Below, piece after piece: positions 17,045-28,693 of a stretch of DNA of 64,000 nt. The stretch lies in the NCBI GenBank assembly GCA_963700285.1, contig CAVOXA010000014.1:768001-832000 (forward strand). Direction: 5' to 3'. The notes beneath the pieces were generated by a model. That model was not told the origin of the DNA. It searched no databases and worked only from the letters and a program-made list of their open reading frames with translations. Both the position numbers and the translations under genes were made by a program. The stretch comes from an uncultured Chloroflexia bacterium. GTDB lineage: Bacteria; Chloroflexota; Anaerolineae; JAAYZQ01. Each line of letters begins with the position of its first letter. Positions within the stretch are counted from its first letter, which is position 1.

Positions 17045-17728
17045 CTACGCGAGGCTCTCAAAGCCAGCCTGGCCTGAATTTAGTTCCTCCATCTCTCCAG
17101 TGACACAAAAGACCACACGCTCACACACATTGATGACGCGATCAGCTGTGCGCTCGAGGTTGTGAGCAGCCCAAAGGAGGTAGTTGGATTGTTCAATTGT
17201 GCTGGCATCCTGCAAGATGTAGGACAGCAGTTCGTGAAAAACTTGGTTGTAGAGATCGTCCACTTCATCATCCATAGCGGGGATTGCACGGGCTCGCTCC
17301 ACGTCGCGCTGTACAAAGGCATCCAGCGCACTGCGCAGCATATAGCGCGCCTTTTCCGCCATGACGGGCAGGTCAATGAGCGGCTTGATCAGGGGCTCTT
17401 CTCCGATCATCAGATTGATGCGGGCAATCCCCTTGGCATAATCACCGATACGCTCCAGTTCACTGATGATCTCTAACATGGCGGCCAGAAAGCGCATGTC
17501 CCCTGCCATCGGCTGCTGGGTAGCGATGAGGGTCAGGATGTCAGACTCAATCGCGAAGCGCATCCTATTGATAGCACGATCGTGGTTAATGATCCGCTGC
17601 GACTCAACAAAGTCCCTCTTTTTGAGGGTTTCCACTGATTGAATTAGAACCTCCTCGACCAAACTGCCCATGGCCAGAAGCTCGTCTTGCAAGCGCTGTA
17701 ATTCCTGATCGAATACCCGACGCACCAT
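17045..17728 (-). CDS. phoU: Phosphate signalling complex protein PhoU
   Basis: QQPMAGDMR, ELERIGDYA, DDEVD, LERTADR..N.CE. Confidence 0.96.
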   Translation of the reverse strand: MVRRVFDQELQRLQDELLAMGSLVEEVLIQSVETLKKRDFVESQRIINHDRAINRMRFAIESDILTLIATQQPMAGDMRFLAAMLEIISELERIGDYAKGIARINLMIGEEPLIKPLIDLPVMAEKARYMLRSALDAFVQRDVERARAIPAMDDEVDDLYNQVFHELLSYILQDASTIEQSNYLLWAAHNLERTADRVINVCERVVFCVTGEMEELNSGQAGFESLA

Positions 17729-17737
17729 CCAATCCTC

Positions 17738-18463
17738 CTAGAGAACTTTCGCAGACAGCTTTTGGGGAACCGTGTGGGGCCCCTGCTCTGCAGGCAGGGG
17801 CTGACTCTCCGGCATGCTTCCCAACACCGAGAAGATCACCCAGTCGCAGATGCCAACCACTCTTTCCGCCGCACGTTTGAGATTGTAGGCCGCCCGCGAT
17901 ATGTATACAGCCTGATTCACAGCCCGGGGTCGACTCTCCATGACCCCAAGCAACTCCTGGTAGACCTGTTCGTACCGAGCATCTACCTTCTGGGTGTCAG
18001 CCAGGAGGATGCGAACAGCGTGCACATCGTGCTGCGCAAAAGCCTCCAGCGCACCGCTCACCAGCGCCTGGACACCTGCGCCCAAGCGGTGAATTTGGGC
18101 TACCGGCTTGCGCAGATGGTATTGCACAGCGAGGCCATTGGCCCTGGCTACCCTTTGGCCGTGTTCTGCAATCCGCTCCAACTCCGAGGCAATCTCGATC
18201 ATGGCCACAGCACGGCGGAGTGCAACACCCAGCGGGCGCTGCTCGGCAATGAACTGAAGGCAACCCATCTCGACGGCAAGCCGCTTCTGATGGATCTGCC
18301 TCTCGGTATCGCCCAACCACTCCAAGCCATCCAGATTGCAACACTGGAGTTGGTCCACGGACATGAGCAACAGGCTCTCAACCAGGCTGCCTAAGGCCAG
18401 TACCTCGTCCTGAAGATGCTGCAGATCCGAACCCAATTCTTGTAAGGACACAGTTGACCTCAT
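17738..18463 (-). CDS. Second, divergent PhoU-domain protein
   Basis: ELERIAEH, LKRAAER..GICDWV; several acidic motif residues replaced. Confidence 0.8.
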   Translation of the reverse strand: MRSTVSLQELGSDLQHLQDEVLALGSLVESLLLMSVDQLQCCNLDGLEWLGDTERQIHQKRLAVEMGCLQFIAEQRPLGVALRRAVAMIEIASELERIAEHGQRVARANGLAVQYHLRKPVAQIHRLGAGVQALVSGALEAFAQHDVHAVRILLADTQKVDARYEQVYQELLGVMESRPRAVNQAVYISRAAYNLKRAAERVVGICDWVIFSVLGSMPESQPLPAEQGPHTVPQKLSAKVL

Positions 18464-18544
18464 CCGAAAGCTGCAGCATAGTCTCCGAGCCTCTCCTCAC
18501 CCCGTTCCCTTCCCCCACCAGTACTGGAGGAAGGGAATCGAGGA

Positions 18545-18964
18545 TCACAAAAGAGGAGGAAGGATGACGGATAACTGGCTGCGGACTTCATCGCGCACTC
18601 GCCGGAAAAGCGACAGGCGCTCAGACTCACTGCCTGTCGCTTTGGCCGGATCATCAAAGCCTATGTGCAGCCTGTGCCCGCGCCCCAGCCAGACCGGACA
18701 GTTCTCAGCCGCGTCGTCGCAGACGGTCACCACCAGATCCAGATCCCTGTCTCGGAACTCCTCCGCGGATTTGGATCTTTGGCCCGAGATATCTATATCT
18801 AGCTCGGCCATGACTCGGACCGCGAGAGGGTGTACGTAGCCGGCTGGGTCGGTACCAGCGGAATAGGCCAACCATTCCTGAGCAAAGTCATGATTGACCA
18901 GGCCTTCCGCCATCTGGCTGCGGCACGAGTTGCCAGTGCAGAGGAAAAGGACTTGCTTCTTCAT
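18545..18964 (-). CDS. arsC: Arsenate reductase, LMW-PTP (thioredoxin) type
   Basis: CTGNSCRSQMAEG, TVCD..ENCP, FDDP. Confidence 0.9.
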   Translation of the reverse strand: MKKQVLFLCTGNSCRSQMAEGLVNHDFAQEWLAYSAGTDPAGYVHPLAVRVMAELDIDISGQRSKSAEEFRDRDLDLVVTVCDDAAENCPVWLGRGHRLHIGFDDPAKATGSESERLSLFRRVRDEVRSQLSVILPPLL

Positions 18965-19082
18965 GCCCTGCTCATCCCCTCTGAGCCTGTCCCCTTCGAT
19001 TTGCAACGAATGACGCAAGATGAAAAACGAGCGAGCCATGAACAGGGCGTTGCGTGATGCAAGAGCGGTCGTCTATTTCGCA

Positions 19083-19898
19083 TCAGCCAAAGCGTCCTGT
19101 GATATAGTCTTCCGTCCGCTGATCCTTGGGGTTGGTAAACAGCGACTTGGTTGGGCCGTATTCCACGAGGTAGCCAGCGCGGTCGTCATCCATATTGAAA
19201 AATGCGGTATAGTCTGACACACGCGCGGCCTGCTGCATGTTGTGGGTAACGACGATGATGGTATAGTTCTTGGCCAGTTCGCGCATCAGATCCTCAATTT
19301 TTAGGGTCGCAATGGGATCCAGGGCCGAGGCCGGCTCATCCATCAGAATGATCTCTGGGCGCACAGCGATGGTCCGGGCAATGCACAGGCGCTGTTGCTG
19401 CCCGCCAGACAGCGAATATCCGCTCTCATCAAGTTTGTCCTTCACCTCATCCCAGAGTGCCGCCTGTCGCAAGGATTTCTCGACAAGTTCGGCCATATTA
19501 CCCTTGAAGCCATTGATCTTTGCCCCCCAGGACACGTTTTCGCTGATGGTCTTGGGAAAAGGGTTGGGTTTCTGAAACACCATGCCCACGTGGCGCCGGA
19601 CTTCTACAGCATCTATGCCATCGGCATAGATGTTCTGCCCGTGAAAGAGCACTTCTCCCTTGGCATGCGCTGTGGGCACCAGCTCATTCATGCGGTTGAA
19701 GGAACGCAGCATCGTACTCTTGCCGCAACCGGAAGGGCCGATGATGGCCGTGATCTTGCGCGGCTCGATCTTCAGATTGACATCCTTGATCGCCCGAAAG
19801 TCGCCATAGTAGACCTGGAGATTGCGCGCTTCAACGGCATACTTGCCGTTGGATGATAGATACGTAGGAGCAGGAGTCAGGTTGCTCATGTCAGTCAT
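19083..19898 (-). CDS. pstB: Phosphate ABC transporter ATPase
   Basis: [44 protein letters not shown]. Confidence 0.98.
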
Positions 19899-22045
19899 GT
19901 AATCCTCCTCTTCTGTGCCCGGTTGCGTAGGAGCACGGCGGCAGCATTCAGGGCCAGGAGTAGGGTCAAGAGCACGAGGATGGCTGCTGCCGCGATGTTC
20001 CGGAACTCATCCTGTGGACGCGACGTCCACTGGTAGATTTGGATGGGAAGCGTCGTAAACTTGGAGAACGGGCTATTGGGGTCGACGGTGATAAAAGTCG
20101 AGGCGCCGACCACGACCAGGGGTGCGGTCTCACCGATGGCGCGGGAAACCGCCAAGATGGTGCCCGTCAGGATACCCGGAAGCGAGCCGGGCAGGACGTG
20201 GTGCCAGATTGTCTGCCATTTGGTCGCTCCCAGGCCATAACTGGCCTGGCGCAGGGAATTGGGCACAGCCCGGATGGCCTCCTGGCCGTTGATGATGATC
20301 AATGGCAGGATCAATAGCGCCAGGGTCAGGCCGGCCGATATGATGGTCCGCCCATTGGCCGTAGTGGGATCGGTCAAACCCAGGAGTGTTCCGCTGGTCA
20401 GAGGTTCAAGAGCACGGACAAAGATGGCCAAGCCCAGCATGCCGTAGATGATGGAGGGCACACCGGCCAGGTTGTTGATATTGGTCCGGATTAAGCCATT
20501 GAGCCAGTTGTCTGCGGCGTACTCTTCCAGGTAGATGGCTGCGCCAACCCCCAGCGGAAAGGCTACACACACCGTAATGAGGATCGTAAACAGGGAACCA
20601 AGGATGGCCGTCCGCACGCCCGCTCGCTCCGGCTCGGGTGATTGGGGCGTGATCAGAAACTTGGGGTTGATCCAGGACACAAACTCGACATCTGCATCTG
20701 GATACTTGGCAGCGGCCTCGGCCAAGACCTCCGACCGCCTGAAAACGGAATCAAAGAGCGACCACGTCTGCTCGATCTTGGGTTCAACGACTCGCTCCAG
20801 AACCAAAGCATGCACATCCTCATGGGTACGCTCCACAAAAGGCATCTCGCTCTCATAACGCCGGAAGAGACCTTTGGACACGTTGGCCTGGAGAATGCCG
20901 ACCAGCGTCCCTTTGGGCAGATCCTGTAGGTTCTGATCCAGCACGGATTCGACGAAAAAGTCCAGGGTCCCGCTATCAGCCCCCGGAATGTAGCGTACGA
21001 TGGGCTCATGAGGCCAGTCCGGATCGACATCTGACCAATAACCAGCCTCTGCAAAGATCTGCTGTAGCTGCCCAGAGGTCGCCTCAGTCAAGAATCCGTT
21101 CTCCTGGCTGACGACAACGGCTAGGGCATCGGTTCCGACCCGGAACTCTGCTGGCTCTCGCTTCCCCTTGCGGCACAGCTCAACCTCTATGCGCTTGATG
21201 CGCCTGCTGGCGTTCGAGATCTCTGTGTCGCGGTCCACGCAGAATCGCCGGAAACCAGCGCTGCTGCCGATGCTCTCTACAGAGATCTCTCCCGAATAGC
21301 CATCGTTCTGGAACCTCTGAACCATACGCGCAGAGAGCGGAGCGACGGTAGAGCTTCCGACCGTTGTCATGTCACCCGCTACCGACTCGGGGCGCACAAC
21401 TGGCAGTTCACCAGCAACCGGCAGGCCCATCGCCTCCAGCCAGGCCGCTTTGGATTCGCGGAGCGCCTCGTCGCTGAGAGGGAAATAGCCGACAACCTCA
21501 ATCTCCTCATCAACGTGAGTCAGGTAGTAGTTAAGAAAGGCAGCGACATGGGGGAATTCCTGCATCAAGCCGGCCGTCGAGTAGAGGAACAGCGGCCGCG
21601 ATAGCCCATAGTCGCCAGAGTCCACCGTATCTGCGGTCGGAGCAACACCATCGACCGCAAGGGATCGTAGCTCTCCGGCATGGCTCTGATAGTAGGCATA
21701 GCCAAAGAAACCAATGGCATTGGGATTATCTGCGATCTTTTGCGCAAGCTCTTCATCGTCCTCGCTGTGCACCGTGTTGGGCAGCGAGAGCACGCGCTCC
21801 TTCTGCGCAGTCGCCGCCAGAGCCCCAGGGTCCATGCTGTTCTGACCAGCCACATAGCCAAAGGCGCCATTGATGATGTTGAGCAGCAGCGCCGTAAGCG
21901 CAATGATGCCAATTATTGTGGATACCTGTAGCACAAGCTGCCACGCTTTCGCTGTACGGTAGCGACCGGGGAGGTTGTCCCCAAAGTCATCGCCCTTGCT
22001 GGGGAAATCTATCTCCCGCGCCCCCGCCTTTCGTCGACGAGCCAT
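19895..22045 (-). CDS. pstA: Phosphate ABC permease PstA with inserted, circularly permuted PstS domain
   Basis: C-terminal PstA core ([28 protein letters not shown]); aa ~81-372 align to the PstS C-half followed by the N-half. Confidence 0.93.
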
Positions 22046-23238
22046 TACTCGTATACCTCCCGGAAGCGCCGCACAATGCGCTGGCTGATGATGTTGAGGG
22101 ACAGAGTGATAAAGAACAGGACGAGTCCGATAGCAAAGATGCTGTTATAGTCGATGGAATCGTAGCTGATATCGCCGCCGCTGATGCGCACGATATGGCC
22201 TGTCATGGTTTCCGCTGAATCAAAGGGGTTCAGCGTAAAGTTTGGCCCCGCACCAGCAGCGATGGCGACAATCATCGTCTCGCCGATGGCGCGCGAGATA
22301 GAAACGATAAAGGCGGCCGTGATCCCCGACAGAGCCGCAGGGAGCACCACTTTGATCGCTGTCTCCCAGCGTGTAGCGCCCATGCCGTAGGCCGCCTCCC
22401 GGAGGGATCGCGGTACTGCGCTCAAAGCGTCCTCGCTCATGGAACTCACAAGAGGCAAGATCAGAATGCCGATCACGATGCCAGCGGAAGCCGTATTGTA
22501 GATCTGGACGGTCTCAACGCCGAAAATGGTGCGCAACAAAGGCGTCATGAAGGTAAGAGCAAAATAGCCATAGACGACTGTCGGAATCCCAGCCAGTACC
22601 TCCAGCACTGGCTTCAGGATGCCCCGCGCCCGGGGTGATGCGTACTCGCTCAGATAGATGGCTGCGCTCAGGCCAAGAGGGAGGGCGACGACCATGGCCG
22701 CAAGGCTGGTCATGAGCGTGGCGGTGACTAGGGGCCAGATCCCGAAATGTCCAATCTGGGGATTCCACTTGGTACCGGTCGCAAACTCAACCAGCGAGAC
22801 CTTGTTGGCCACGAACACCTCGCTGCCGATCTTGTGGGGAACAGCCTCTGTTCCGTTCACGGCGCGCTCGACTGTGTACAGGGCGGCATCTACATCGAGG
22901 ATGAGCATCTCTTCCTCGCTGATGCGGACGACGTCGTCCACTTCCAGGCTGGCGCCACCTGTACTCAGTTTCAGTATGGACTGGCTATAGCCAACAGGCG
23001 CCTCGATCTGCTTGTTCGTCTGCTCCCAAGAAACCTCGGTAAAGAAACTGAGCGACTCCTTGGCCAAAAAGTACACGATCCCAATGGTGGTAAAGATGGA
23101 CAAGACAGCGCATGCGAACAGAAGGGTCTGTATGACGCTTTCCCCGATGCGGGGGCGTTTCCGCAAGGCTAGCTTCAGGTCAGCGTCTGACATATCTATG
23201 ATGGTACTGCTTTGCCCCACCGCCATCTCTTTCTGCAT
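22045..23238 (-). CDS. pstC: Phosphate ABC permease PstC with extracellular insert
   Basis: [29 protein letters not shown]; extra ~78 aa after TM1. Confidence 0.95.
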
Positions 23239-23390: not shown

Positions 23391-25399
23391 CTACTGGCCT
23401 ACGGCACCCAGCCAGGACTGCTTTGCAGCTTCCAGGCCCTCAGGGCTGGCCGGGAAGTAGCCCACATCCGTGATCTCTTCGTTCACATAGGTCAGGTAGA
23501 AGTTGATAAAGTCAGCCACCTGTGGCTTCTCTACCATGATGCTGGCCGTCGAGTAGATGAACAGCGGCCGGGCCAACGGATACTCGCCCTTGTCTACCGA
23601 CTCGGCGTTGGGCTCCACACCCTCGATCGACAGAATTTTGAGCACATCCTGGTTCTCGTCATAGTAGGCGTAGCCAAAGAAGCCAATGGCGTACGGGCTG
23701 CCCAGGATGCCTTGCACCAGCACGTTGTCATCCTCGCTCAACTGCGTGTTCGACGCCTCCAGGATCGGCTCCTCGTTCTCCTCAAAAACCTCTTCGACAA
23801 AGAAGTCAAAGGTTCCGCTGTCCGTACCAGGAATGAACCGCTGGATCGGCTCCCCAGGCCACTCCGGATTCACGTCCGACCACGTTTCCGCCGTCGAAAA
23901 GATCAGCGCCAGCTCCTCAAGCTCGCCCCAGTCCACAAAGTCGTTGTCCTGGCTAACCACTACTGCCAGAGCATCCGTGCCTACACGGAACTCGATCGGC
24001 TCGCGCCCTATCGCCTGGCACGACTCCACCTCCGAGTCTTTGATCGGCCGGCTGGCGTTGGAGATGTCCGTCTCCCCTTCCACGCAGAACCGCTCAAACC
24101 CAGCCCCGCTTCCGATGCTGTCGATGGTGATATTGTCCGCGTAGCCCTCGTCCTGGAACCGCGCTGCCATTGCCTCCGACAACGGGAACACCGTCGAACT
24201 GCCGGCCGTCACGATGTCGCCCGCTCACTTCCAACGGATTCACCTCAGGCAGCATTGTGCCTTCGGCTGCTGCGGGTTGCTCCGGCGGCGCTGGCGCTGC
24301 CACACTCAGAGCATCCATCCACGCCTGCTTGGCGGCGTTTAGGGCATCGGGGTTGGACGGGAAGTAGCCGACGCCCGTGATCTCTTCGTTGACGTAGGTC
24401 AGGTAGAAGTTGATAAAGGATCGGCCACCTGTGGCTTCTCTGCCATGATGCTGGCCGTCGAGTAGATGAACAGCGGCCGGGCCAGCGGGTACTCGCCTGC
24501 GTCCACCGACTCTGCGCGTGGGCTCTACACCCTCGATCGTCCAGGATGGTCGAGCGCATCCTCGTTCTCGTCATAGTAGGCGTAGCCAAAGAAGCCAATG
24601 GCGTACGGGCTGCCCAGGATGCCTTGCACCAGCACGTTGTCATCCTCGCTCAACTGCGTGTTCGACGCCTCCAGGATCGGCTCCTCGTTCTCCTCAAAAA
24701 CCTCTTCGACAAAGAAGTCAAAGGTTCCGCTGTCCGTACCAGGAATGAACCGCTGGATCGGCTCCCCAGGCCACTCCGGATTCACGTCCGACCACTTCTC
24801 CGCCGTCGAAAAGATCAGCGCCAGCTCCTCAAGCTCGCCCCATCCACAAAGTCGTTGTCCTGGCTAACCACTACTGCCAAAGCATCCGTCCCTACACGGA
24901 ACTCGATGGGCTCCCGCCCTATCGCCTGGCACGACTCCACCTCCGAGTCTTTGATCGGCCGGCTGGCGTTGGAGATGTCCGTCTCCCCTTCCACGCAGAA
25001 CCGCTCAAACCCAGCCCCGCTTCCGATGCTGTCGATGGTGATATTGTCCGCGTAGCCCTCGTCCTGGAACCGCGCTGCCATTGCCTCCGACAACGGGAAC
25101 ACCGTCGAACTGCCGGCCGTCACGATGTCGCCGCTCACTTCCAACGGATTCACCTCAGGAAGGGCCAAGACCGTTACTTCCTTGACCACTTCCACTTCCT
25201 TGACGACCTCTTTCTCTACTTCTTGGGTGACGACAACCACCACTTCTTGAGTGACGACGACTTCGACTTGCTTCTCGACTTCCTGAGTGACGACGACCTC
25301 AACGGTCTCCTTCACCACCCCAGGTGCTGGGGTCGAGCCGCATGCTGCTAGGAACAGGACCACGAGCAGCAATCCGATGACCCAAAAACTCCGACGCAT
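23391..25399 (-). CDS. pstS: Phosphate-binding lipoprotein PstS with two near-identical tandem domains (several frameshifts, probably errors)
   Basis: Lipobox LAAC; VVVTQEVEK linker; GSSTV/SIGSGAG/SGTFDFF/GYAYY motifs each occur twice; frame breaks near 24840, 24540-24420 and 24220. Confidence 0.88.
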
Positions 25400-25472: not shown

Positions 25473-25533
25473 ATTAACATTTAATCAAAACTAGGTAAAG
25501 AAGGGGTTAATGCCTTGTTAACGATTTGTTAAC
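25473..25533 (-). promoter_or_regulatory. Pho-box-like array upstream of pstS
   Basis: attaa/atcaa/gtaaa/gttaa/gttaa/gttaa at exact 11-bp spacing (25473, 25484, 25495, 25506, 25517, 25528). Confidence 0.75.
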
Positions 25534-25674
25534 AACTGGTGCCAAGCTGGGCACCATTCTCCGGCACAGGTGCTACTTACAGGGGTGACTGGATTGAGCA
25601 ATGTCGGCCAGCAGGGTACCAGGGGAATGGCCATAATCGAGCAGGACCCGCGAATAGCCTGGGCTCTGGCCAGC

Positions 25675-25729
25675 CTTAACCGATTGTTAACCGGAGGCTA
25701 ACCAAAGCTTAATGCGGGGCGTGTATACT
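25675..25729 (+). promoter_or_regulatory. Pho-box-like array plus -10 element upstream of CBM48-like gene
   Basis: TTAAC(25676), TTAAC(25687), CTAAC(25698), TTAAT(25709), then TATACT at 25724. Confidence 0.7.
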
Positions 25730-26181: not shown

Positions 26182-27946
26182 CTACTCCACTGACAGAAGG
26201 GCGAACGAAAAAGTACTCCCCTCCCCTTCAACACTCTCCGCCCATATCCGGCCGCCATGGCCCTGCACAATGTGCTTGGCAATGGCCAATCCCAGGCCTG
26301 TGCCCCCCCCGCTGCGCGCCCTGTCCGCCTTGTAGAACCGCTCAAAGATCCGGGGCAGGTCGTCAGCCGGAATCCCCACACCGGTATCCTGTACTGAGAA
26401 CACGATCTCATCGGCGCTCTGGTCTGCTGAGATGACCACCCTACCCCCTGGCGGCGTGAACTTGACCGCGTTGTGGACCAGGTTCGTGACCACCATCTGT
26501 ATTCGGTCTGCGTCGGCAAGGACCAGTGGCAACGGCCTGGTTAAGAAGATGGTGAACTCTATGCCTGCCCGCTCGGCTTGCGGGCGCAGCCTGTCGGCTG
26601 GTGGTACAATCACCTCGGCGGCCGGCGTGGGCTCCAGGTGTAGAGGGGCTTGCCCCGACTCGACACGCGAGAGTTCCAACAACTCCTGCACCATCTGCGT
26701 CAAGGTGTCCACCTCGCTGTCCATGCGCTTGAGGAAGCGCTTGGCCGCGGGCGGATCCTTGATCGCCCCCCCACTTAGCGTATCCACCAGGGCTTTCAGC
26801 CCGGAGAGGGGCGTGCGCAGCTCGTGGGAGATGTTGCTGATGAAATCGCGGCGCACCGTCTCCAGGCGACGGATTCTGGTGAGATCCTGGAGAATAATCA
26901 GATAGCCTTGCGCGCCCACTTCTCGAAAAGGGGTAACGATCGCCTGCAGGAAGAGGTCATGGTGGCTGATATCAACGGTTTCGACCTGCTCGTCACCCGA
27001 CTCGCGGCATCGCTTCCACAGTTCGATAAGTTGGTGATGCGGGGCAGCCTGGGCGAAGGTACGCCCTACCGCTTGCGCCTCGCTTGTACCCAGGATCCGG
27101 GCTGTGGCCGCATTGATGAGCTCCACCCGGCCATGCTCATCAGTAATCAGTACCCCGTCCGCCATGTGGTCGAGCATGGCAGCCAGGCGAGCCCGCTCCT
27201 CGGCCAGGTTCGTCACTTGAACCCGAAGCTGGTCGGCCATATGGTTGAAAGCCTGGGTGAGCTGGCCAATCTCGTCGCGCGAGGTGGAGACAAGACGGGC
27301 ATCGAGATCCCCTTCCGCCATCCGTTCTGCGACCAGGGTAAGACGCCGTATTGGCCGCGCCATGCGCTCGGCGATGACCAAGGCCATGAGGGCAGCCAGA
27401 AGAGCCGTGACCAGGCCCGCGGTAACAATGTTCTGGCGGAGAAGACCGACATTGGCCTCGATCTCTCCCAAAGGCAGCGAAACACGGACGATGCCGAGCA
27501 CTTGCTCTCCATCTGGTGCAGTTGCTGCATAGGCGACGTACATCATGTCATAGCCGACAGTCTTGCTGAACCGAGTGCTACCAGCATGTCCTGTGTTCAG
27601 CGCACCCTCAACTTCTGGCCGGTTCAGATGGTTGTCCATTTGGGTCCGGTCGGCCTCAGAGTCACCCAGCACGACACCATCGGGGCTGATGATGGTGATT
27701 CTAGCCTCCAGCAGAGCTGGACCAGTGCTTGGCCAGCGCGTCCAGCGCGTCAGCAGGCTCGCCGCTGTCCAGTAGCGGCGCAACACTGTCGGCCAGCAAC
27801 CGGGCATCGGCCAGCAACTGGGCATCCAGATCAGCCAGCCGTGCCTGCTGGACCTGGTTCGATACATACAGGGTTAGCCCCAGAGTCGCCACCAGGATGA
27901 GGACCACATAAGGCACTGCGATACGCCAACGGAGGCCATGGAACAT
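26182..27946 (-). CDS. phoR: PhoR-like sensor histidine kinase (HAMP-PAS-HisKA-HATPase); one frameshift near 27720
   Basis: N-terminus MFHGLRWRIAVPY in a second frame; NHLNRPE, SHELRTPL, NAVKF, DTGVGI, GGTGLGL. Confidence 0.88.
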
Positions 27947-27952
27947 CTTTCG

Positions 27953-28693
27953 CTATCCCTCAAAGCAGTAGCCCACCCCGCGCACGGTGACGATCCGGTT
28001 CGGGTTGGCCGGATCAGCCTCGATCTTTTCCCGCAGCCAGCGGACGTGGACGTCAACCGTACGACTGCCACCGCCAAAATCCCAGCCCCACACCCGGTCC
28101 AGGATCAGATCGCGTGTGAGGGCAATGCCCTTGTTCCGGGCAAGGTACAAAAGAAGGTCGTATTCCTTGGGCTTCAGCCGCAACGGCTCGTCGTCACGCA
28201 GGACCTCATGGCGGTCCAGGTCGATGACCAGGTCATCAAAGGCCAACTGCTCGGTTTCGGGCTTGGCATCTTCAACCGTCAACTCCTCGCGAATGAGTCG
28301 CACCCGGCGCAACAGGGCCTTGACCCTGACCAGAAACTCATGCATGCTAAAAGGCTTGGTCAGATAATCATCGGCTCCCATCTCCAGGCCCACCACCCGG
28401 TCCACCTCGCCCGCCCGAGCGGTGAGCATCAGAATGGGCACGATCGTCTCCCGTCGCAGGATGCGACAGACCTCAAGGCCATCCAGGCCGGGGAGCATGA
28501 TGTCGAGCACGATCAGATCTGGCTGTGCCTCGCGAGCAACCTCCAGAGCAGTCAGACCATCGTTTGAGGTCAGGATCTCGTATCCCTTAGCGGCCAGGTT
28601 GTACTCCAGGGCCTCTAGCAGGGTCAGGTCATCCTCGACGACCAGGATCCGATTCTTCGCGCTGTGCTGCTTCTGTTTCTTTATCTTGCCCAC
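27953..28693 (-). CDS. phoP: OmpR/PhoB-family response regulator
   Basis: [35 protein letters not shown]; GTG start inferred. Confidence 0.9.

Follow-up and report, generated by a model that had tools for sequence, protein, structure and literature searches.

The window analysed here, a stretch of 64,000 nucleotides from an uncultured Chloroflexia bacterium, carries on its minus strand a pst operon in the order pstS-pstC-pstA-pstB-arsC-like-phoU-phoU. The first gene, pstS (23391..25399), encodes a lipoprotein-like signal and two PstS domains in normal order, with a Val/Glu/Lys/Thr-rich repeated stalk (25180-25320) between the signal and the first domain. The two repeats are 94% identical in DNA, and the first repeat and the junction (24221-24840) contain several frameshifts, across which alone the tandem is readable; since contigs of three sequencing runs carry one extra base at ~24830, the frameshifts are likely consensus or assembly errors. 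The genes for the partner permease PstC (22045..23238) and the ATPase PstB (19083..19898) flank pstA and score over the cut-offs of TIGR02138 and TIGR00972, respectively. The tail of the operon (17045..19039) consists of an arsenate-reductase-like LMWPc gene and two phoU-like genes, with one PhoU over the profile cut-off and the second PhoU and ArsC under it. PstC has an extracellular insert of ~75 aa at aa ~68-145 (~22800-23035) that is variably present among relatives. Upstream of pstS, GTTAAC/TTAAC repeats with 11-base spacing (25500-25535 and 25680-25695) form a candidate regulator box, and a PhoR-like kinase and a PhoB/OmpR-like regulator, both under cut-offs, are encoded at 26182-28693. 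A promoter and terminator scan gave results at chance level, and no RNA run carrying the locus was found among the sequencing runs listed.

The pstA gene (19895..22045, minus strand) is a single open frame of 716 aa; a database copy (P0001) shows a handful of residue differences, one of them at position 262 (G for S). The first transmembrane helix, ~aa 33-61 (21863..21949), is a hydrophobic stretch inside a model helix spanning residues 25-61, and the membrane domain proper occupies aa 461-716 (19898..20665). This domain matches chain A of the E. coli structures 9K3S, 9K3X and 9K3Y and scores 252.9 bits against the NCBIfam profile TIGR00974 over aa 458-711 (cut-off 193.45), which together with the PstC and PstB neighbours, both over cut-off, identifies the protein as PstA. 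Between TM1 and the membrane domain lie two further segments. The second, aa 373-460 (20666..20929), is a native extracytoplasmic domain of Anaerolineae PstA that is also present in relatives lacking the insertion and gave no match in a Pfam search. It is the host of the first, a 296-aa insert at aa 77-372 (20930..21817) that replaces 4-6 aa of insert-less PstA and is the subject of this work.

Architecture and predicted fold of the inserted domain

A reading of the letters alone had proposed that the extracellular loop of PstA holds a complete PstS domain with its halves in swapped order, and this order was confirmed. The PstS C-half comes first (aa 83-206, 21428..21799), with SEDD at 94-97, GYAYY at 115-119, RPL at 150-152 and the C-terminal helix; a linker (aa 207-223, 21377..21427) then joins the old C-terminus to the old N-terminal arm; and the N-half follows (aa 224-372, 20930..21376), carrying seven phosphate-ligand equivalents, P354 and the pair C269/C291. 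A tblastn comparison within the window aligned PstA 85-212 with the C-half of PstS (53% identity) and PstA 214/223-360 with the N-half (~62%), giving the two offset diagonals expected of a permuted domain. The last match of the N-half and the first match of the C-half are neighbours in PstS repeat 2, where the two ends are contiguous as claimed, so nothing is missing from the inserted domain. All protein strings quoted in the sequence-only reading were found; its interval of 20930..21805 was right at the lower end but too short at the upper, as the replaced segment extends 12 bases further to 21817. The length of the segment separates the two kinds of PstA cleanly, 17 insert-less proteins having 4-6 residues at the site and 24 fused ones 289-300 (296 in the window's own). 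Profile searches reflect the swapped halves: PF12849 scores over cut-off on the insert, and TIGR02136 (PstS) matches in two stretches that do not follow the canonical N-to-C order and total 179.9 bits, under the cut-off of 206.6.

The architecture is shared by all 120 of the best full-length homologues listed (one of them this gene), in which the PstS C-half, the N-half and the PstA membrane domain follow in this order, the PstA N-terminus being visible as well in 118; the proposed search for permuted binding domains joined to permeases thus returned a family. A chimeric assembly of pstS repeats with pstA had to be considered, given that the pstS frameshifts mark the locus as error-prone in assembly. 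Such an error is vanishingly improbable, since 119 further protein clusters and 22 further genomes of the class share the architecture and the identity between the insert and the local pstS is only 58%. The internal linker is covered by one near-identical public contig, which differs at 4 of 229 bases (X5 record 29); among the matches listed none spans either of the two insertion junctions. With the family-wide architecture and the bridged linker, we rejected a chimera and regard the insert as almost certainly a real, complete and conserved permutant.

An AlphaFold2 model of PstA, built with 114 homologues and with the membrane part folded without PstC, has a mean pLDDT of 81.5 and a pTM of 0.69; the membrane part is weaker, while each ten-residue block of aa 61-440 reaches a pLDDT of 84-98. 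The insert is predicted to form the whole two-lobed fold of a type II binding protein with both hinge strands intact, as anticipated, and all helices and strands of a model of the soluble PstS recur in it in permuted order. Its best structural match is PstS 4H1X (Foldseek E 1e-10; VIA Z 21.8, rmsd 2.2 Å over 230 aligned residues); the two align collinearly because the halves of 4H1X are swapped as well, at another cut. OpuAC structures align with the model over 274-283 columns, though weakly (E ~1e-3). The single cut that had been claimed is predicted to fall in the loop between helices 136-146 and 151-154 of lobe II, and the new termini, predicted to be adjacent, both lie on lobe II. At the entry, host and insert share an unbroken helix (aa 73-87), and at the exit the helix 359-368 is joined to the host domain by a short turn; the joints are therefore predicted to contain no flexible tether. 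With both ends on lobe II and joints of this kind, lobe II would be held and lobe I left free to close.

Phosphate site and docking face

The SAR11 PstS 9JWY is reported to bind phosphate through seven residues, with Pro in place of the usual Arg (PMC12421899). Alignment to 9JWY places the ligand equivalents of PstA at S231, S232, T233, S261, S280, G359 and T360, and the Pro at P354, so that the insert has the Ser-Ser-Thr, Ser/Thr, Ser and Gly-Thr of a PstS site; the GSST, SR and SGT motifs and the Cys pair named from the sequence are indeed kept. With Ser and Thr counted alike, all seven ligands are retained in 61 of 63 distinct full inserts and in 24 of the 25 inserts of the first set, and the Cys pair, C269/C291 in the window's PstA, in 63/63. 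The 63 were gathered by similarity after 12 duplicate loci were dropped, a procedure that favours conserved inserts; decay of the site is seen in the insert of genome G088. In the closest pairs among those listed, dN/dS is ~0.04-0.25 (distant pairs, being saturated, were ignored), which suggests that the insert is under purifying selection. Judged by these residues, the insert probably binds phosphate.

The surface by which PstS meets the permease has fared differently. Seventeen E. coli PstS interface residues (PMC12976172) were used, with Ser38, a ligand, and two residues in a poorly aligned loop left out; the Thr44 of the paper is Gln44 in the E. coli K-12 sequence. They were mapped by hhalign (probability 93%, 23% identity), and for 14 of the 17 the matching site shows a conservation of at least 90% among 42 soluble domains of the same operons. 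In the inserts these 14 sites keep the conserved residue in 41% of cases, versus 71% at 104 other conserved sites and 97% at the ligands (p 0.0003); the difference is also seen for polar and Gly sites (p 0.0016) and in the first set of 25 inserts (p 0.0007), and it weakens to a borderline one for polar sites only (p 0.045; first set, p 0.06), all these statistics treating as independent sites and related sequences that are not. The window's insert matches 5 of 15 docking sites and the soluble domains mostly 14-15, on the distant 23%-identity mapping. G262, E266, E273, T255 and E121 are examples of lost conservation. Inserts also evolve faster overall (mean identity 47% versus 71% for soluble domains), the docking-face sites are variable in them without a new conserved surface, and those few sites that are conserved in inserts alone are mostly grouped close to the joints. 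The loss of most conserved docking-face residues, as read from these alignments, is an addition to the sequence-only reading.

In the membrane-side loops, fused and insert-less PstA have the same top residue at 37/37 conserved sites of the P3 loop and 15/15 of the P2 loop. A soluble pstS lies upstream in every one of the 55 other fused loci with upstream DNA (31 with one whole domain in the DNA covered, 20 with two or three, 4 with a cut piece), the other 7 loci starting at contig ends. Since the docking-face residues are mostly lost and the soluble pstS is always retained, the insert is probably not a canonical deliverer of phosphate to the pore.

Distribution, history and other hosts

Among the matches listed, an intact fused pstA occurs in 23 of 401 Anaerolineae-class genomes (including G000), spread over eight families; in three further genomes of the class the fused gene is frameshifted or cut by a contig end. 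The query matches 205 of the 401 at all, with 257 weaker matches beyond those listed. Loci with full inserts include members of Caldilineaceae, Promineifilaceae, Ardenticatenaceae and Anaerolineales. Outside the class, a search of 401 genomes of the phylum at E 1e-60 gave no intact fused PstA; the 12 other matches there span just the range of the tandem-pstS type. In a genome of the same genus (G001; L034, L035) there are two pst operons, both with a fused but frameshifted pstA, one with a single and one with a tandem pstS.

The sequence-only reading had taken the tandem pstS and the fused pstA for donor and product in one operon. In this literal form the proposal was not supported: the window's insert shares 58% identity with the PstS repeats of its operon and 65-68% with the inserts of three other genomes, and in a quick tree of un-permuted sequences 25 inserts split from 56 soluble domains with an SH-aLRT of 100 (a divergent second pstS paralogue, G253, earlier among the inserts on a 2.07 branch, was dropped). 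An AU test did not reject a clade joining the insert and the PstS of the window (p 0.17). On these comparisons the tandem pstS beside it is unlikely to have been the donor itself. The wider idea of permutation by duplication fared partly better, in that tandem pstS genes are common in the phylum and the junction is compatible with it. Against it, the repeats of tandem pstS pair within their own genomes in the tree, so that the tandems seen today either arose after the insertion or have been homogenised. The linker does match the inter-repeat junction, whose motif was found at 89 of 101 tandem junctions, but it is not specific to junctions, being the N-terminal arm of every PstS domain, including that before repeat 1; it is kept in 13 of 63 inserts.

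Distances among inserts follow those among their host PstA proteins (Mantel r 0.78, p 0.001, 62 loci). In a quick PstA tree of 104 rows the window's group nests among insert-less sequences, and the full state requires 15 changes, at least 10 of them forced by starred branches. On these trees the inserts appear to be one old lineage, and a single gain in Anaerolineae followed by many losses is the simplest reading; re-acquisition by allele exchange among close relatives may have contributed. Sister PstA proteins have no insert, a stub of 9-22 aa (in G365 still with SEDD) or lobe II only. The last form occupies five rows and needs three changes on the tree, and two more cases were found separately. 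Its inserts (115-132 aa where measured) are joined hinge to hinge, have lost the ligands and had at least three origins; examples are L077 (G162), L074 (G057), L072 (G099), L143, L152, L167 (G382), L168 (G376) and P0370. By this sequence comparison the insert is dispensable: in sister sequences it is absent, reduced to lobe II or decayed at its site.

A 6-aa segment of insert-less PstA (for example L006 and L065), with the consensus LAVDGVP when the preceding residue is included, resembles insert residues 129-135 (21638-21661); a likeness at 5-6 of the 7 positions occurs in 18 of 63 real inserts versus 44 of 3150 shuffles, and it may be a remnant or a β-turn coincidence. P0360 and L158:215-2434 are PstA proteins with further P2-loop insertions of 115-125 aa and with Cys-containing insertions in the native outer domain.

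Permuted PstS domains also occur in other hosts, among the best 150 of 376 representatives (50% identity) at E 1e-30. P0376 and the fragment P0429 are PstC proteins whose outer domain holds a PstS with intact ligands, its cut lying in lobe I at about residue 30. One of the 401 genomes (G311, L158:2335-4587) has such a gene with a normal pstS upstream, and the form was not seen in five f30/f42 loci, in two of which pstC is covered by DNA. The PstC insertion is an independent event. The insert of P0359, a divergent PstC-like permease, has the same cut as that of PstA, falls with soluble PstS and retains 12 of the 15 docking sites; this single sequence probably reflects a separate, more recent insertion and is the strongest candidate for a tethered receptor acting alone. 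A same-cut permuted PstS with a decayed ligand site lies in the extracellular region of P0407, a 1115-aa dCache/HAMP/GAF membrane protein. About 13 N-terminally membrane-anchored proteins (P0379, P0400, P0418, P0434, P0448, P0453, P0456, P0460, P0474, P0475, P0485, P0490, P0395, P0425) consist of a Pro/Thr linker, a same-cut permuted PstS, a further linker and a C-terminal domain with a faint OpuAC match (E 0.001 in one). Ligands are decayed in many members of this group, as in P0407, and one cluster is named Caldilineaceae. Free single-domain PstS with the same cut was not found among the 120 best matches of 162-518 aa, which comprise 76 normal single domains, 43 tandem pieces and 1 fused fragment; an atlas search returned PBP_like_2 clusters only. 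P0378 (361 aa), considered as a free permuted PstS, was rejected, as it looks rather like a fragment of the anchored group.

Role of the insert and comparison with known systems

The data presented above lead us to propose, with a probability of a little under one half, that the insert acts at the transporter's mouth as an accessory phosphate trap fixed in place, docking and delivery remaining the task of the lipoprotein PstS. The first outer loop of PstA would hold a permuted PstS paralogue, predicted to be an intact two-lobed binder, whose lobe II is rigidly held and whose lobe I closes on phosphate. Next to the docking site it would catch and hold phosphate, including phosphate escaping during hand-over; it would not dock in the canonical manner, and delivery would be left to the separate lipoprotein. 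As to its origin, the middle of a tandem pstS (C-half, linker, N-half) may have been copied into pstA in one old Anaerolineae event, after which the insert would have been inherited with pstA and repeatedly lost or trimmed. We infer its binding, its position relative to the pore and its physiological effect. An accessory trap would be in keeping with a lineage in which PstS domains are also multiplied in tandem; if passive, it would not necessarily increase the steady-state flux.

Alternatively, the insert may itself deliver phosphate to the pore as a tethered second receptor alternating with soluble PstS, in the manner of the domains fused in OpuA or GlnPQ, its link to PstA replacing the docking contacts. 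The ligand site is intact, 12 of the 15 docking sites are retained in P0359, probably a separate insertion of younger date, and a covalent link could relax a docking face still in use. In E. coli the interface between PstS and the permease is sparse, PstS gives no ATPase stimulation, TM1 of PstA packs on PstC, and PstS has its C-lobe over PstC (PMC12976172), which would make a lobe II anchored just after TM1 plausibly placed. Yet the docking-face residues are variable without a new conserved set, the membrane loops are unchanged, soluble pstS has been lost in no fused locus, and the model lacks a flexible linker where GlnP has linkers of 19 and 14 aa (PMC8025302), so that delivery by the insert is possible but doubtful. 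The retained ligand site and the apparent loss of the docking face would also suit an extracellular sensor or gate, in which closure of lobe I alters access of PstS or TM1 and tunes transport or PhoU/PhoR signalling. The rigid helical joint adjoins TM1 in the model, two phoU-like genes and the PhoB/PhoR-like pair (under cut-offs) flank the operon, and the same-cut module recurs in the extracellular Cache region of P0407. Both attachments are on one lobe, however, and closure would not directly pull them apart; the site of P0407 is decayed, Pho genes are ordinary neighbours of pst operons, and no change of a membrane-loop residue accompanies the insert. We hold this function to be distinctly unlikely.

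A broader version of the sensor idea is that permuted PstS is a natural plug-in module: tandem pstS genes would keep producing permutants with adjacent ends, so that loops of Pst permeases have received one at least three times (in PstA and in PstC, with two cut sites) and the Cache sensor and the anchored proteins have reused it; the PstA copy would then sense extracellular phosphate through a rigid coupling and gate the docking of PstS or Pho signalling. As a whole we consider this unlikely. Finally, phosphate binding may be irrelevant and the insert a tolerated relic or a structural clamp, by analogy with the grip of the MalF P2 loop on its receptor. Forms with lobe II only, which arose at least three times (five sequences and two more), frequent short remnants and full losses, and the decayed site of G088 would all be at home in such a scheme, but the retention of seven ligands in 61 of 63 full inserts at ~47% mean identity and the low dN/dS make it improbable.

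Should the accessory trap be borne out, a ligand-competent permuted receptor within a loop, with a selected site and a decayed docking face, would represent a new role for binding domains in importers, and a means of studying how PstSCAB links external phosphate with transport and Pho signalling. Domain insertion by permutation is also represented here by an unusually complete natural series, which includes tandem precursors, full inserts, remnants that are short or reduced to one lobe, alleles without an insert and independent repetitions of the event at a second cut site. Phosphate biosensor design could draw directly on the two natural cut sites. The parts, fused receptors and permuted binding proteins, are known; their arrangement here, a receptor inserted in a permease loop, was not found described in the open full-text literature searched.

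The nearest known system is E. coli PstSCAB (9K3S, 9K3X, 9K3Y), with the same pstS-pstC-pstA-pstB-phoU operon, matching membrane domains and a P1 loop between TM1 and TM2 that faces the receptor (PMC12976172). That loop is short in E. coli, whereas here it holds an 88-aa native domain and the 296-aa permuted PstS, adding a second putative phosphate site, and a third with the tandem lipoprotein. The SAR11-type PstS 9JWY, of the TIGR02136 subfamily, shares the seven ligand positions and the Pro with the insert but is a free protein in normal order, with measured binding (PMC12421899). As to the permutation, PstS2 of Streptococcus pneumoniae (4H1X, SP_2084) has its halves swapped as in the insert, the PstS profile positions 2-117 falling on chain residues 157-264 and 153-270 on 41-154. 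It is, however, a free protein, ~20% identical, and to judge from the profile ranges is cut ~25-30 residues earlier, before the PG..SGT strand; it is an independent permutation, by which permuted PstS is already precedented as a structure, though no paper naming 4H1X together with PstS was found in the open full-text literature. OpuAC (2B4L), ProX (1R9L) and ModA are natural permutants of the type II binding fold (PMC2395249), but they belong to another family with other ligands, and none is described there as inserted in a permease loop. OpuA and GlnPQ of Lactococcus lactis, as described in the papers cited, have a bilobed binding domain in the chain of a membrane subunit, as PstA does here, but these are homodimeric importers in which the receptors are fused terminally, end to end, through flexible linkers, and deliver the substrate (PMC2861598, PMC8025302). 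The insert of PstA, in contrast, lies within the loop between TM1 and TM2, is anchored at both ends through joints that are ordered in the model, belongs to one subunit of a heterodimer that retains its free receptor, and has an apparently decayed docking face.
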